Virus record (IMG/VR): IMGVR_UViG_3300027780_001348
Coordinates: 1-57,527 of that record
Length of the DNA: 57,527 nt
Reading direction: 5' to 3' (one strand)
Source: a virus
Taxonomy: Duplodnaviria > Caudoviricetes
Numbering within the stretch: the stretch's first letter is position 1; each line of letters opens with the position of its first letter. This document shows, one piece after another, positions 38,269 through 41,911 of this stretch. A program made the position numbers and the translations under genes. The notes under the pieces were generated by a model, which was not told where the DNA came from, made no database searches, and saw only the letters and a program-made list of their open reading frames with translations.

Positions 38269-38688
38269 ATGAATAAAATCAAAAAGTATTTATACCAGGC
38301 ATTAGGATTCTTGTGTGTAGGTTTAGCCTACATCGGTATCGTAACTCCTGGAATACCATTCAGCATATTTTTAGTAATTGCTGCATGGGCGTTTGCTAAG
38401 AGTTCACCTAAAATGGAGGCATGGTTATACAATCATCCTTGGTTTGGTAAGTTCTTAACAAATTGGAACACTAAACGTATTTTCCCTACTAAGGGAAAGT
38501 ATGCAATGGTATTTGTGATGTCAACAACATTACTTGCAACTTATCTTGCTACTGGCAATATTAAAGCAGTAGTATGGAGTGGTGTGTTTATGTTAGGCGT
38601 TGCAATATGGGCTTGGAGATATCCAGGTTCAGAAGAGGAACACGCTCGTCGTGTTCGTGAAGGAAAGCGAGTAGCTTGGTTAAAGTAA
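38269..38688 (+). CDS. YbaN/DUF454 inner-membrane protein
   Basis: G...PGIP...F...AAWAFAKSSP...WL..HP.FG. Confidence 0.88.
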   Translation: MNKIKKYLYQALGFLCVGLAYIGIVTPGIPFSIFLVIAAWAFAKSSPKMEAWLYNHPWFGKFLTNWNTKRIFPTKGKYAMVFVMSTTLLATYLATGNIKAVVWSGVFMLGVAIWAWRYPGSEEEHARRVREGKRVAWLK

Positions 38689-38689
38689 T

Positions 38690-39010
38690 ATGAAATGCGA
38701 ACAAGGTGATTTAGCTAAAATTATATACTCTGTTAGACCAGAGAATATCGGCAAGATTGTTTTGGTTGAGAACTACATCGGAAAGTACAAGGCAGGGGAA
38801 TCTTTTGATTTCAAAGGACTAGCCTGTTTAATTCCTGTAACAGATCATTACTGGTGGATATCCGCAGAACATGGATTAAGTAACATGTTTGGAGATGCAC
38901 CGAAAGCCTACATTGCTGACACATGGTTGGAACCTATCCGACCTGAAACTGGCAAGAATAGAACTGCGTCTGTCGTAAAAGACAAAGTAGTAGATAGACA
39001 AGCCGCATAA
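38690..39010 (+). CDS. hypothetical protein
   Basis: MKC..GDLA...D.WL.PI phage motif. Confidence 0.75.
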
Positions 39011-39024
39011 CAAAAGGAAATAAA

Positions 39025-39228
39025 ATGACAACAGGAAAAGTAAAATGGTTTAATGCAGAGAAAGGTTATGGCTTCATTACACCAGACGATGGCTCAAAAG
39101 ATGTGTTCGCACATTTCTCAGCTATTTCAAGCGAAGGGTTTAAGACTTTAACAGAGAATCAAGCTGTTTCGTATGAACTAGAACAAGGTCCGAAAGGTCC
39201 TCAAGCGTCGAACATTCAATCTCTTTAA
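39025..39228 (+). CDS. cspA: cold-shock protein
   Basis: [30 protein letters not shown]. Confidence 0.96.
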
Positions 39229-39245
39229 TAAAGATTTGAATAGGG

Positions 39246-39268
39246 AAAAAGGGCTTCGGCCCTTTTTT
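39246..39268 (+). terminator. intrinsic terminator (bidirectional)
   Basis: AAAAAGGGC-TTCG-GCCCTTTTTT. Confidence 0.9.
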
Positions 39269-39309
39269 CTTGACTTGTTGCTCGCTTGATGTTATATTAT
39301 AAATACTAT

Positions 39310-39658
39310 CGTAACGTTGAAGCAATTTAAACGCTATACAGGACTCGGGGGCAGTACCCGACGCCTCCACCATAAGCACTCTAGTGATACTTAGGAACGG
39401 TATCTTAAACATTGTGTCCCTTAGGCCGAATCGTAGATTATCGTGGTCGGATACGCAGGCTAGAGTGTTTATGATGGGGGCGAACTAGGATCGACTGGTA
39501 GTTAATAGAGTTAGTGGAGTTACCGGGATGTAAGCGCCGTTACCGCGAACAAACTTTGTAAATGCAAACGCAAATACAGCGCCAGGAATGGCATTAGCGG
39601 CTTAGTCTAACTAAGCACGTAGGGGTTGGTAACTTACCTGGCAACAGAAAAGTTACGC
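39310..39658 (+). ncRNA. ssrA: circularly permuted two-piece tmRNA; tag (A)ANANTAPGMALAA
   Basis: Acceptor piece ...TCGGGGGCAGTACCCGACGCCTCCACCA ends at 39372; coding piece starts GGGGGCGAA...GGATCGAC at 39476 with a G3:U pair; tag ORF 39564-39605. Confidence 0.93.
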
Positions 39659-39659
39659 T

Positions 39660-39733
39660 GCGGGTATTGTGTAATGGTAAGACCTTAGGTTTCCAACCTA
39701 AAGATAGGAGTTCGATTCTCCTTACCCGCTCCA
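39660..39733 (+). tRNA. tRNA-Gly(TCC)
   Basis: GCGGGTA stem, TTAGG-TTTCCAA-CCTAA, TTCGATT, TCCA. Confidence 0.93.
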
Positions 39734-39760
39734 TAAACTAAACAAATGTTAACTTAGGGG

Positions 39761-39789
39761 TTGACAGATACTAAATAACACTGTATATT
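39761..39789 (+). promoter_or_regulatory. sigma70-type promoter of the leader-tRNA operon
   Basis: TTGACA-N17-TATATT; TAAATA motifs also at 39772 and 39801. Confidence 0.8.
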
Positions 39790-39826
39790 AAGTTATACAT
39801 TAAATAATAGAACAACAGGAATTACA

Positions 39827-39889
39827 ATGCACAAGACAGCACAACAATCATTTTATTGGTGCCCACCGACAGGGAGGGGTTTGTCTTGA
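39827..39889 (+). CDS. leader peptide MHKTAQQSFYWCPPTGRGLS
   Basis: AGGA RBS 6 nt upstream; lies between the promoter and the terminator. Confidence 0.75.
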   Translation: MHKTAQQSFYWCPPTGRGLS

Positions 39890-39919
39890 TGTGACTTTTT
39901 AACAAAGTGATATTTTTAT

Positions 39920-39956
39920 AAGCCCTTAGCACAAATAGTGTTAGGGGCTTTTTTTT
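39920..39956 (+). terminator. attenuator terminator upstream of the tRNA cluster
   Basis: AAGCCCTTAGCAC-AAATA-GTGTTAGGGGCTT ending in a T8 tract. Confidence 0.88.
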
Positions 39957-39965
39957 GAAGTTTAT

Positions 39966-40040
39966 ATAGGTGTAGTGTTAATGGCAACACGGGTGATTCC
40001 AAACCACCAGCTCTCAGTTCGAATCTGAGCATCTATGCCA
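39966..40040 (+). tRNA. tRNA-Trp(CCA)
   Basis: ATAGGTG/CATCTAT stem, TTCCAAA loop, TTCGAAT, CCA. Confidence 0.9.
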
Positions 40041-40046
40041 ATTTAA

Positions 40047-40128
40047 GCAGAGTAGGTTCCACGGTGGGACATCGGACTGTAAATCCGACGCTAACGCATA
40101 GTAGGTTCGACTCCTACACTCTGCACCA
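40047..40128 (+). tRNA. tRNA-Tyr(GTA)
   Basis: TCGGA-CTGTAAA-TCCGA, variable arm, CCA. Confidence 0.9.
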
Positions 40129-40133
40129 GTTAA

Positions 40134-40211
40134 CTCGATGTAGCTCAGTCTGGTTAGAGCACTCCGTTTGGGGCGGAGGGGTCGTAGGTTCGAATCCTAC
40201 CATCGAGACCA
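40134..40211 (+). tRNA. tRNA-Pro(TGG)
   Basis: CTCCG-TTTGGGG-CGGAG, CCA. Confidence 0.95.
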
Positions 40212-40216
40212 AGTTA

Positions 40217-40304
40217 GGAGAGTTGGCAGAGTGGCCGATTGCACTGGTTTTGAAAACCAGAGAACCGAAAGGTTCCGTGAGTTCGAATCTCACACTCTCC
40301 GCCA
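40217..40304 (+). tRNA. tRNA-Ser(TGA)
   Basis: CTGGT-TTTGAAA-ACCAG, long variable arm, GCCA. Confidence 0.95.
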
Positions 40305-40308
40305 ATAT

Positions 40309-40384
40309 TGGGGTGTAGCATAATTGGTAATGCATCCGGTTTTGATCCGGACGAGTGTAGGTTCGAATCCTACCACCCCAGCCA
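40309..40384 (+). tRNA. tRNA-Gln(TTG)
   Basis: TCCGG-TTTTGAT-CCGGA, U1-A72, GCCA. Confidence 0.95.
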
Positions 40385-40388
40385 ATAT

Positions 40389-40473
40389 GTGAGCGTGGCG
40401 GAATGGTTACGCAGTGGATTGCAAATCCATCAGTCCGAAAGGCATGCAGGTTCGAGTCCTGTCGCTCACTCCA
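40389..40473 (+). tRNA. tRNA-Cys(GCA) with long variable region
   Basis: GTGGA-TTGCAAA-TCCAT, U73 discriminator, CCA. Confidence 0.9.
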
Positions 40474-40540
40474 TCTTCGGTTGACAACGTTAACAGTTTG
40501 TAGTATAATAGTTAATTATTACTTAACTAAGGCACGTACT

Positions 40541-40894
40541 ATGAATATATTGCACAACTTTTTAATTCCAGAAGCTGAACACCGTAACGCATATTGGGCA
40601 AAGCAACCTATAAACGATCCAGGAACACTTAACGGATTTAAAGGTACATTTGCATTCAGTGAACACAGTCGAATTCCGCAAGGCATTGTAGAGTTCTTAT
40701 TAGAACACTTTCATAAAAAATGTTTTAAGACTGCTAACAGTTGGAAGAAGAATCATATTGAAGCAATTCCACTTGATGAAATAAACGAGCTGATGAACGA
40801 GCTATGGGACGGGCCAGGCAGCATGATTAAAATAGCACGTCTAACAAACGAAATGCGTATTGCTAGGTTGTGGGACGACGATGATGAAGACTAA
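40541..40894 (+). CDS. hypothetical protein
   Basis: Start reassigned downstream of the TTGACA...TATAAT promoter. Confidence 0.7.
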   Translation: MNILHNFLIPEAEHRNAYWAKQPINDPGTLNGFKGTFAFSEHSRIPQGIVEFLLEHFHKKCFKTANSWKKNHIEAIPLDEINELMNELWDGPGSMIKIARLTNEMRIARLWDDDDED

Positions 40895-40907
40895 ATTAGG
40901 AGGCATT

Positions 40908-41108
40908 ATGCAATACCTTAAAGAAGTAACAGTTTGGGATACTCCCGTTCAGAATCACACATATATTGTTAACGAAGGCGGCAACTTGGCAGGCTACATT
41001 AAGCAAGGTACTACTGAAGAGATTATCTTTTCAAAGCCTTTGAAGCAATGGTCCAAGAGCCACCGCAAATTTGAGAAGGTCGTCATCTATGACGATCAGA
41101 GAAGTTAG
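40908..41108 (+). CDS. conserved phage hypothetical protein
   Basis: AGGAGG RBS; E.T.W...NHTY motif. Confidence 0.75.
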   Translation: MQYLKEVTVWDTPVQNHTYIVNEGGNLAGYIKQGTTEEIIFSKPLKQWSKSHRKFEKVVIYDDQRS

Positions 41109-41110
41109 CG

Positions 41111-41257
41111 ATGAATAAGTGCAGTGAATGTGGCGAAGCATACTTTACTTCACCGTATTATACAGCAGGAAGGCAACACATATTCTGTGGACCAGAGTGC
41201 AGTTTAAAATGGCATATCAGAGAAAATAAAGACAACGAAAAATTGTCCGAAACGTAG
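41111..41257 (+). CDS. small TRASH/MYM-type zinc-finger protein (48 aa)
   Basis: CSECG...FCGPEC; hand translated. Confidence 0.6.
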   Translation: MNKCSECGEAYFTSPYYTAGRQHIFCGPECSLKWHIRENKDNEKLSET

Positions 41258-41332
41258 TACTTGTATTCAGATCTAACTATAGTGTCTAGAGTACAGGGTA
41301 AATAATTTGCACGACAATAAAGGAAGAACTTA

Positions 41333-41911
41333 ATGATTGCAGGCTTTAAAATTCCACACGTTACTTTTAAGACAAGAGTTCGTGACGAAACAATTGAAGG
41401 ACCAAACCCATACCGTTGGCAAGACATGACAACAGACGATTACTTTAAAGGTAAGCGTGTAGTGTTATTCAGTTTGCCGGGTGCATTTACACCTACTTGC
41501 TCAACGTATCAGCTACCAGGTTTTGAAGAGAACTACAACAAAATTTGTGAAATGGGAATTGACGACATTTATTGCATGAGTGTCAATGACGCATTTGTTA
41601 TGAACAAATGGGCCAAAGATCAATGCATCGAACGTGTTAAAGTTATTCCAGATGGCTCCGGCGACTTTACCCGATTTATGGGCATGTTAATTGGAAAGTA
41701 CCATTTGGGATTTGGTTTACGTAGCTGGCGATACATGGCTATCGTTAACGATGGCGTAGTAGAACAGTGGTGGCAGGAACCTGGCATTAACAACGAAGGC
41801 TTAGACGATGATCCGTATGGCGAAACCGCTCCGGAAAACTGTTTAGCTTTTTTGAAAACTCATTCATCGACGTTTGAGTTTATTAAGAACATCAACAACG
41901 AGAAAGTTTAG
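41333..41911 (+). CDS. Peroxiredoxin (Prx5 type)
   Basis: LPGAFTPTCS, VNDAFVM, RSWRY. Confidence 0.94.
   Translation: MIAGFKIPHVTFKTRVRDETIEGPNPYRWQDMTTDDYFKGKRVVLFSLPGAFTPTCSTYQLPGFEENYNKICEMGIDDIYCMSVNDAFVMNKWAKDQCIERVKVIPDGSGDFTRFMGMLIGKYHLGFGLRSWRYMAIVNDGVVEQWWQEPGINNEGLDDDPYGETAPENCLAFLKTHSSTFEFIKNINNEKV

Follow-up and report, generated by a model that had tools for sequence, protein, structure and literature searches.

The 57,527-nucleotide (nt) stretch of DNA analyzed here, positions 1 to 57,527 of the IMG/VR virus record IMGVR_UViG_3300027780_001348 (Duplodnaviria; Caudoviricetes), is called the window in what follows. Its positions 39,761 to 40,473 hold a promoter, a short open reading frame (ORF), an intrinsic terminator and six tRNA genes (Table 1), which together probably constitute a ribosome-mediated transcription attenuator of a phage tRNA operon. 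Such a leader would be self-referential, sensing the demand for the tRNAs that stand behind it. An earlier sequence-only reading of the window had proposed that a translated leader gates read-through into the tRNA operon and that its codons mirror the anticodons of these tRNAs. The proposal is supported by the co-variation of leader codons with tRNA sets in related phages, by the absence of an internal promoter and by the geometry of the leader RNA, from which we infer the regulation itself. The promoter, the ribosome-binding site, the leader ORF, the terminator and the six tRNAs were all found in place, and the leader codons CAA CAA TCA TTT TAT TGG TGC CCA CCG read as had been claimed.

Leader codons and tRNA sets

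The tRNA set behind the leader differs among relatives. tRNA-Trp stands there alone, or is accompanied by any of tRNA-Pro, tRNA-Cys, tRNA-Tyr, tRNA-Ser, tRNA-Gln, tRNA-Gly, a tRNA with the anticodon CAT and tRNA-Ile(TAT). The sequence-only reading had called for a comparison of related phages, in which leader codons should co-vary with the downstream tRNAs, and the outcome is positive. For this comparison the sensor ran from codon 2 as far as the G-run at the end of the ORF, and tRNAs spaced by 30 nt or less counted as a tight cluster. The null distribution came from 20,000 shuffles of the leader-cluster pairings. In the combined set of 86 variants, 114 of the 116 non-Trp tRNAs have a cognate leader codon, compared to 83.2 (standard deviation, sd, 3.8) in the shuffled pairings, and 0 of the 20,000 shuffles reach 114. 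The viral discovery set gave 67 matches out of 68 (shuffled 46.5, sd 3.0) and the metagenome replication set, analyzed with the same definitions, 47 out of 48 (36.8, sd 2.4). Where the sensor sequences of the metagenome set were also new, all 43 of 43 tRNAs matched (33.8, sd 2.2). No shuffle out of 20,000 was as high in any of these three comparisons. Leaving out tRNA-Pro, 78 of 80 tRNAs are matched (shuffled 48.8), and under strict wobble rules, with the CAT anticodon reading ATG only, the count is 103 of 116 (78.1).

The association has a clear direction. For eight of the nine tRNA types there is either no case or one case of a tRNA being present with its codon absent. Thus tRNA-Cys occurs together with its codon in 33 variants and without it in 1, while 34 variants have the codon only and 18 have neither. 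The corresponding numbers are 8, 0, 18 and 60 for tRNA-Ile(TAT), and 8, 0, 20 and 58 for the CAT-anticodon tRNA. The ninth type, tRNA-Ser(GCT), occurs twice, once with its codon and once without. When each leader was replaced by that of the closest relative whose tRNA set differs, 47 of 68 tRNAs were matched, as opposed to 67 of 68 for the phage's own leader, so the match is not explained by relatedness. Individual pairs illustrate this. L012 has ...ATA ATA GGT TGG in front of Pro-Gly-Ser-CAT-Ile, whereas L049 has ...ATA ATA TGT TGG in front of Pro-Cys-Ser-Ile. L029 combines GGT with tRNA-Gly, whereas L019 has AAT and lacks this tRNA. L008 combines ATA with a CAT-anticodon tRNA, whereas the window has ACA and lacks it.

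The signal is confined to a short part of the leader. Counting codons from the Trp codon (W), the region from W-5 to W+1 matches 72 of the 80 non-Pro tRNAs (shuffled 40.9, sd 3.5; z = 8.8). The region from codon 2 to W-6 matches 10 of 80 (z = 1.5) and that from W+2 onward 9 of 80 (z = 1.8). In the window, codons of the six classes come together in 35 of 9,301 in-frame 19-codon segments of its own 30 long ORFs, and in 0 of the 9,301 do they fall within nine consecutive codons, as they do in the leader.

A control at the level of transcription units counted every same-strand tRNA within reach of a leader. Of the tRNAs that have no promoter between them and the leader, 118 of 121 match, whereas none of the five behind a promoter of their own does (Fisher p = 2e-7). 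The five unmatched tRNAs, each preceded by TTGAC(A/T)-16/17-TATA(A/C)T, are Ala in L017, Glu and Arg in L059, Arg in L170 and Gly in L241.

The eight clusters with a CAT-anticodon tRNA (L008, L012, L019, L029, L100, L126, L204 and L227) all have ATA in the sensor, and none has an internal ATG. This suggests that these tRNAs read AUA, as tRNA-Ile2 with lysidine does, and not AUG.

Relatives and conserved anatomy of the leader

The first relatives were nine viral contigs found through the protein encoded downstream of the tRNAs (40541-40891), and six of them have a homologous leader in front of tRNA-Trp. Searches of GenBank phages with the window element and with the variant L013 (megablast and blastn) gave no leader homologue, only tRNA matches. 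Scans with patterns built around the conserved block at the stop codon yielded 43 and 91 viral stretches, at least 117 metagenome stretches, 106 of which have a T-run within 100 nt, and 7 genome-contig stretches. One of these seven (L293) is a true element and the other six are chance matches inside unrelated sequence. L293 is a complete leader module of the same type as L165, located on a 335,231-base contig of a metagenome-assembled genome labelled Candidatus Neomarinimicrobiota. The contig matches in length the genome size that CheckV implies for the window. It may be a giant-phage genome that was binned with the bacterial one, and gives no safe host.

The final set comprises 47 viral and 41 metagenome elements, that is 88 non-redundant combinations of a leader and a tRNA set. 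Duplicates, truncated copies and an unrelated family sharing a 14-mer were removed. Elements at contig ends (e.g. L022, L153, L036 and L046) and five elements with the ORF end outside the filter were dropped before counting. L026 is outside the counts, its G-run not fitting the search pattern; read by eye, its Tyr, Pro, CAT and Cys tRNAs each have leader codons. Rows containing N (L020 and others) were left out of the alignment only, and L274, L283 and L288 out of alignment A3 only. L178 and L267 have no tRNA call within 200 nt, and the tRNA comparisons rest on the remaining 86 variants. The excluded family consists of nine elements (L054, L058, L077, L095, L115, L119, L145, L149 and L150) that share the 14-mer GGGGTATGTCTTGA and lack a Trp codon. 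The L054-type element combines a promoter-like site and an ORF-like MFAPQSLLFDGGMS with a long, structured tail. Among the matches listed, the 14-mer scan returned mostly chance matches in addition to this family.

The Trp codon TGG is present in all 88 leaders, and a few variants have two. A Shine-Dalgarno-like motif is found in 87 of the 88, and the ATG is invariant in the 79 aligned rows. The leader ORF, whose conservation the sequence-only reading depended on, spans 15-21 codons in every one of the 88 variants despite indels. The indels either keep the frame or let the ORF end at another stop inside the conserved block TGTCTTGAYGTGACTTTTTAA (39881-39902 in the window), where every reading frame meets a stop codon, so that frameshifted leaders end within about 25 nt. 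Of the 87 variants whose upstream sequence is long enough, 75 have a promoter-like site, at a median of 31 nt before the ATG. Among the remaining 12, several combine TTGACA with a -10 element of the TATAAA type, or stand behind another tRNA. At the end of the ORF there is an invariant block, GGGGU(A/U)UGUCUUGA, followed by an AU hairpin and a terminator of -12 to -18 kcal/mol. In L133 and L155 the ORF stops just before the G-run and the nucleotides of the block are nonetheless kept; thus the block is conserved as RNA and not as peptide. ORF, Shine-Dalgarno motif, Trp codon and terminator occur together in all 88 variants, although the upstream neighbors vary. For two 20-residue leader peptides, neither Pfam nor PHROG had a matching family at E up to 10, short queries of this kind having little power.

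In 84 of 86 variants, ARAGORN places tRNA-Trp first behind the leader. The exceptions are L033, where ARAGORN missed a tRNA that Rfam matches, and L265, which has an extra tRNA-Cys in front of tRNA-Trp. That no independent promoter for the tRNAs lies behind the terminator, another point on which the earlier reading turned, was borne out: the gap in the window is 10 nt long and a scan of its plus strand between the T-run and tRNA-Trp gave no promoter, and none of the 33 terminator-to-tRNA gaps longer than 50 nt among the relatives contains a promoter-like site. Other tRNA clusters of the leader-bearing phages have ordinary promoters and no leader.

Several variants carry additional elements among the tRNA genes. 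An insert of about 85 nt separates the terminator from tRNA-Trp in 20 of 86 variants (e.g. L017:2473-2566, minus strand). It folds into a cloverleaf-like structure of three arms that is closed by a stem of 10 bp (-24.4 kcal/mol, z = -2.8), has no promoter-like site and no Rfam match at E up to 0.01, and may be a degenerate tRNA or a processing element resembling a tRNA. In L034 and L051 the 121-nt gap after tRNA-Trp holds a second conserved insert that has no promoter-like site and ends in ...GGGTTGCCA. This insert, too, may be a tRNA-like or otherwise structured RNA, and the tRNA behind it is still matched by a leader codon. Two tRNAs of L012, tRNA-Trp(CCA) (307-394, 88 nt) and a tRNA with the anticodon UAU (727-820, 94 nt), have a long variable arm. 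The 3' CCA is encoded in every tRNA inspected.

RNA structures and ribosome position

The whole leader of the window folds with -42.8 kcal/mol (z = -4.0). The terminator is the best supported structure: 40 alignment cells are altered on both sides of the stem compared to 11.6 in shuffles, none of 500 of which was as high, 96.8% of the cells are paired, and the T-run has 7-9 T in all variants.

The sequence-only reading had pointed to a 10-bp pairing of 39875-84 with 39918-27, the 5' arm of the terminator. This antiterminator, AGGGGTTTGT/ATAAGCCCTT, is indeed the predicted minimum-energy structure of the window leader when the 3' arm of the terminator is omitted (P ~0.99), and the predicted fold encloses the ACTTT/AAAGT hairpin. 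Pairing of GGGGU with the 5' arm of the terminator is predicted in 49 of 53 variants. In the alignment, 87.9% of the antiterminator cells are paired, compared to 33-63% with the partner slid along the sequence. In L072, which has a replacement for the hairpin, the helix was read by eye to reach 13 of 15 positions. The AU hairpin has 93.9% of its cells paired in 79 sequences. Together with its U-tract it is possibly a pause signal for RNA polymerase.

The ribosome was simulated by masking the RNA up to its leading edge, codon by codon. With footprint edges of A+10 to A+14, the last A site that permits the antiterminator is predicted at W-1 to W+3, beyond which the antiterminator is lost. In the window the predicted antiterminator persists up to codon 13, the first Pro codon. 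The fold under simulated occlusion, which the earlier reading had suggested computing, thus agrees with it, and the invariant Trp codon is predicted to be the most downstream position at which a ribosome can wait without covering the antiterminator strand.

The earlier reading also held that CCCACC sequesters GGGAGGG. This did not stand, as the folds contain a contact of at most 2-3 bp, and CCCACC:GGGAGGG was rejected as a 1:2 protector. The only helix resembling 1:2 pairs AAGACAG with UUUGUCUU, and is outcompeted by the antiterminator when the transcript is truncated. The weak AAGAC:GUCUU helix has 84.5% of its cells paired and forms only together with the terminator. Of the trp/his geometry that had been taken as established, the mutual exclusion of antiterminator and terminator is a prediction from folding. 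The 1:2 hairpin is unsupported, and the untranslated RNA is therefore predicted to read through.

Proposed mechanism and its weak points

Transcription would start at the leader promoter and probably also enters from an upstream tmRNA/tRNA-Gly unit. A ribosome would load on the 20-codon leader. If it passes the codons from about W-5 to W+1 quickly, it would cover GGGGU(U/A)UGU at the end of the ORF before the polymerase completes the terminator. The 5' arm of the terminator would then be free, the terminator would form, and transcription would stop 10 nt before tRNA-Trp. If the ribosome has to wait within these codons for a scarce charged tRNA, GGGGU would remain exposed, would pair with the 5' arm of the terminator across the AU hairpin, and the polymerase would read into the tRNA genes. 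The awaited tRNA would always include Trp, as well as those of Tyr, Cys, Ser, Gln, Ile(AUA) and Gly that the operon encodes, and perhaps Pro. The newly made tRNAs would relieve the stall, closing a negative feedback loop.

A more far-reaching version of this idea is a programmable tRNA homeostat, in which the seven codons form an address list that is edited as tRNA genes enter and leave, so that only replaceable tRNAs are sensed and are transcribed on demand. We give this version an even chance. If it is true, the demand could arise from the run-down of host tRNAs after shut-off, from a codon mismatch with a new host, or from anticodon nucleases.

A number of observations weigh against the attenuator. 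Translation of the leader, stalling and regulated read-through are steps that we infer. The variants are related and come partly from overlapping assemblies. A tree-based independent-pairs test found 1-4 pairs per tRNA type among those listed, never in the opposite direction, and gave no p below 0.05; it is underpowered, with 5 of 44 inner branches supported, and because the poorly resolved tree leaves few usable pairs the nearest-neighbor control was used instead. Many leaders hold codons without a matching tRNA: L008 keeps QQSFYWC and has only the Trp, CAT and Pro tRNAs. The exceptions to the match are Ser(GCT) in L003, the extra tRNA-Cys in L265 and Arg(GCG) in L209, and the three leaders followed by tRNA-Gly(UCC) have GGT as the Gly codon, and a modified U34 would be unable to decode it. 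L006, one of the nine contigs found first, has tRNA-Trp directly behind a plain TTGACA-17-TATAGT promoter without any leader, the leader of L269 has a premature stop, and that of L178 is followed by no tRNA.

The structural predictions have weak points of the same kind. No two-sided changes are found in the antiterminator, because its 5' strand is invariant, which is partly fixed by the search patterns. The alignment likewise gives no covariation for the AU hairpin and the AAGAC:GUCUU helix. The terminator is favored at equilibrium in all states that were simulated (P(term) 0.93-1.0), so the switch must be kinetic; this is also true of the trp leader. The prediction that untranslated RNA antiterminates and reads through is unlike trp. 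The Pro codons, and the sole TCN (Ser) codon of some leaders (W+2 in L031), are located at or past the permissive edge, where a stall would favor termination. One could speculate that the Pro-Pro pair holds the ribosome over the G-run.

Evidence from RNA consists of contigs assembled from four marine RNA runs; such contigs cannot show ends, levels or strand, and may hold DNA. A 177-nt contig from a close relative spans 39787-39956, approximately from promoter to terminator, and is a weak hint at most. Of two others, one bridges 39619-39832 and the other spans 40012-40153, across tRNA boundaries. These contigs do not separate termination from read-through, and this too has to be set against the attenuator.

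Alternative explanations

The leader could instead be an independent small gene for a peptide of 19-21 residues and/or an RNA of ~160 nt, comparable to rnTrpL/peTrpL, with the tRNAs expressed by constitutive leakage and the codon match due to linkage or to local adaptation of codons. In favor of this, the unit forms a full cassette from promoter to terminator, which the discrete 177-nt contig matches, and the nucleotides of the N-terminal AAG ACN and of the ORF's 3' half are conserved beyond coding needs. Moreover, attenuator RNAs and leader peptides can act in trans, as the accessible text of two reports describes (PMC6614838, PMC7298713). However, the co-varying changes are non-synonymous (Gly, Cys, Asn or Tyr before Trp, and Thr to Ile) and track the gain and loss of tRNAs in close relatives, which is not expected of a peptide under functional constraint. 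Furthermore, the tRNAs behind their own promoters are unmatched, the signal is found only in the seven codons just before the point where the ribosome would cover the antiterminator strand, and the last four or five residues of the peptide are dispensable in L133 and L155. There is no peptide family, and no Rfam family above threshold; the best overlap with the leader is VrrA, with 26.5 bits compared to a gathering score of 50 (E = 0.12). A small gene in place of an attenuator is thus unlikely, although a role in trans may exist in addition to attenuation.

Another possibility is that translation of the leader is sensed and the output is RNase processing, precursor stability or access of Rho, the hairpin and T-run being mainly a processing or 3'-end element. 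The codon-tRNA co-variation requires only that leader translation matters, the antiterminator has no support from covariation, and the terminator is thermodynamically dominant in all simulated states. Yet the hairpin is a canonical, covarying intrinsic terminator with its T-run in all variants, the G-run mimics the 3' arm of the terminator and is predicted to pair with the 5' arm in nearly all variants folded, and occlusion of the antiterminator strand agrees with where the Trp codon lies. An output of this sort is decidedly unlikely. It could finally be a coincidence, in which the terminator ends the upstream tmRNA/tRNA-Gly unit, the ORF is fortuitous and read-through has no regulatory meaning. 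No terminator separates tRNA-Gly (end at 39733) from the leader promoter, and the RNA-library contig across 39619-39832 bridges the two units. This explanation is hardly credible in view of the joint occurrence of ORF, Shine-Dalgarno motif, Trp codon and terminator in 88 variants with varied upstream neighbors, the rarity of the six-class codon set in the ORFs of the window and the shuffle tests (0 of 20,000).

Parts of the module and its surroundings

The attenuator module and the genes on either side of it are listed in Table 1. The tRNAs from Tyr to Cys are spaced by 5-7 nt and form one promoter-less unit with tRNA-Trp.

Table 1. Features of the leader module and of the flanking region in the window
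Feature	Position	Strand	Remarks
CspA-like cold-shock gene	39025-39228		flanks the RNA gene island
Two-piece (permuted) tmRNA	39266-39659		promoter 39270-39298; Rfam alpha_tmRNA 131 bits, tmRNA_permuted 108 bits
tRNA-Gly	39660-39733		directly after tmRNA
Leader promoter, sigma-70 type, TTGACA-17 nt-TATATT	39761-39789	+	11/12 matches
Shine-Dalgarno AGGAA	39817-39821	+	5 nt 5' of ATG
Leader ORF, 20 codons and TGA	39827-39889	+	ATG at 39827; peptide MHKTAQQSFYWCPPTGRGLS
Sensor codons W-5 to W+1	39842-39862	+	CAA CAA TCA TTT TAT TGG TGC
Invariant Trp codon	39857-39859	+	
Leader Pro codons	39863-39868	+	CCA CCG; after the sensor codons
Segment 2, predicted antiterminator 5' strand	39875-39884	+	AGGGGTTTGT; within the last ORF codons
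AU-rich hairpin	39889-39913	+	directly after the stop codon; enclosed by the predicted antiterminator (folding)
Segment 3, predicted antiterminator 3' strand	39918-39927	+	ATAAGCCCTT; overlaps the terminator 5' arm
Intrinsic terminator	39920-39956	+	13-bp stem (39920-39950), 5-nt loop, T8; -17.4 kcal/mol
tRNA-Trp(CCA)	39966-40040	+	first gene of the presumed regulon; ARAGORN, Rfam tRNA match
tRNA-Tyr(GTA), Pro(TGG), Ser(TGA), Gln(TTG), Cys(GCA)	40047-40473	+	ARAGORN, Rfam
Perfect consensus promoter TTGACA-17-TATAAT	40481-40509		12/12 matches; directly after tRNA-Cys
Peroxiredoxin-like gene	41333-41911		PHROG 2281, E = 3e-64; flanks the RNA gene island

The carrier of the module is a giant marine phage. 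CheckV gives the window a completeness of 17%, from which a genome of roughly 340 kb follows. The ribonucleotide reductase encoded in the window is ~69% identical to homologs from marine cyanomyoviruses, and the DNA runs containing the stretch are marine or seawater metagenomes.

The cspA-like gene, the two-piece tmRNA and tRNA-Gly precede the leader in this order. A scan of the window found no terminator between the tmRNA/tRNA-Gly unit and the leader promoter, so that transcripts from upstream also reach the leader terminator. The tmRNA of the window was not called by ARAGORN, despite both Rfam matches; that of the relative L029 was called, with the tag ANDNYAPEMALAA. Just 5' of the CspA-like gene there is a match to the cspA thermoregulator that is below threshold (66.5 bits compared to 78). 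The consensus promoter behind tRNA-Cys precedes a gene for a 117-residue protein without known family, which is kept beside varying tRNA sets in relatives.

Significance

Leader-peptide attenuation has been textbook knowledge for fifty years, to our knowledge solely for genes whose products synthesize amino acids or load them onto tRNAs. In the phage module this logic appears to be applied to tRNA genes themselves, and in a virus, a kind of feedback control that appears to be new for tRNA genes. As the list of regulatory codons tracks the tRNA content of the operon, a comparison of sequences is enough to read the function. Provided that it is confirmed, the module would be the first known demand-driven control of phage tRNA expression. 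It would provide a direct handle on the much-debated question of why phages carry tRNAs, the sensed codons telling which shortages matter in infection. The leader codons would also assign a decoding identity to unusual or orphan phage tRNAs, such as AUA to those with the CAT anticodon, and synthetic biology would gain a compact sensor that can be re-addressed to any charged tRNA. The promoters conform to the sigma-70 consensus, and the module should therefore be testable in Escherichia coli.

Comparison with known systems

By its parts the module belongs to ribosome-mediated attenuation. The one part that was not recovered is a protector hairpin of the trp/his type, and its absence bears on the trp/his subtype and not on the attenuator class. 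Leader-peptide (class I) attenuators control amino-acid operons in Proteobacteria, trpL of the E. coli trp operon being the type case. Like trpL, the phage module has a promoter-proximal short ORF with regulatory codons, which always include Trp, and an intrinsic terminator in front of the regulated genes. The predicted antiterminator shares the 5' arm of the terminator, and a ribosome at the end of the ORF is predicted to mask the 5' strand of the antiterminator, both as in trpL. With regard to geometry, the Trp codon of the phage leaders is located 13-19 nt before that strand. Unlike trpL, the module is carried by a phage, lacks a convincing 1:2 protector and mostly has a single Trp codon instead of tandem ones. 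Furthermore, the genes it would regulate are tRNAs and not biosynthetic enzymes, so that the loop closes on the tRNA supply itself, and its set of regulatory codons changes with the gene content of the operon.

Multivalent attenuators are known from the ilvGMEDA leader, with Ile, Leu and Val codons, and from the thr leader, with Thr and Ile codons. As in these, one phage leader would sense several aminoacyl-tRNAs. However, the ilvGMEDA and thr leaders respond to two or three metabolically linked amino acids through runs of codons, whereas the phage leader would respond to up to six unrelated tRNAs through single codons in about seven positions, and its codon list co-evolves with the tRNA cargo.

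The pheST attenuator, with its leader pheM, and the T-box riboswitches control genes of aminoacyl-tRNA synthetases in response to tRNA charging. They share with the phage module the regulation of a component of the decoding apparatus by shortage of charged tRNA, but the phage module would control tRNA genes and not synthetases. T-boxes bind uncharged tRNA directly and need no translation, whereas the phage module would rely on the ribosome on the leader. An Rfam scan found no T-box (38500-41500, E up to 1) or other cis-regulator at the leader.

Searches of the accessible full-text literature turned up no leader-peptide attenuator of tRNA genes, from phage or cell; subscription literature and supplements lie outside this scope. 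An older description may exist, for example in work from the 1980s on the tRNA regions of phage T5.

The Trp attenuator of Sinorhizobium meliloti releases an RNA, rnTrpL, and a 14-residue peptide, peTrpL, which have functions of their own according to the accessible text of the reports (PMC6614838, PMC7298713, PMC7968998). The phage leader RNA, ~160 nt long and conserved at the nucleotide level, could be bifunctional in a similar manner. There is no sequence relation between the two systems, and the phage leader matches no Pfam leader family.

Phage-borne tRNAs replace host tRNAs that are scarce or have been cleaved (PMC10264068, PMC11464382, PMC11555353). In their accessible parts these three papers treat the function of the tRNAs, and not a leader that regulates tRNA genes. 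A demand-driven switch of the kind proposed here would fit such a use, both in tRNA supply and in counter-defense.

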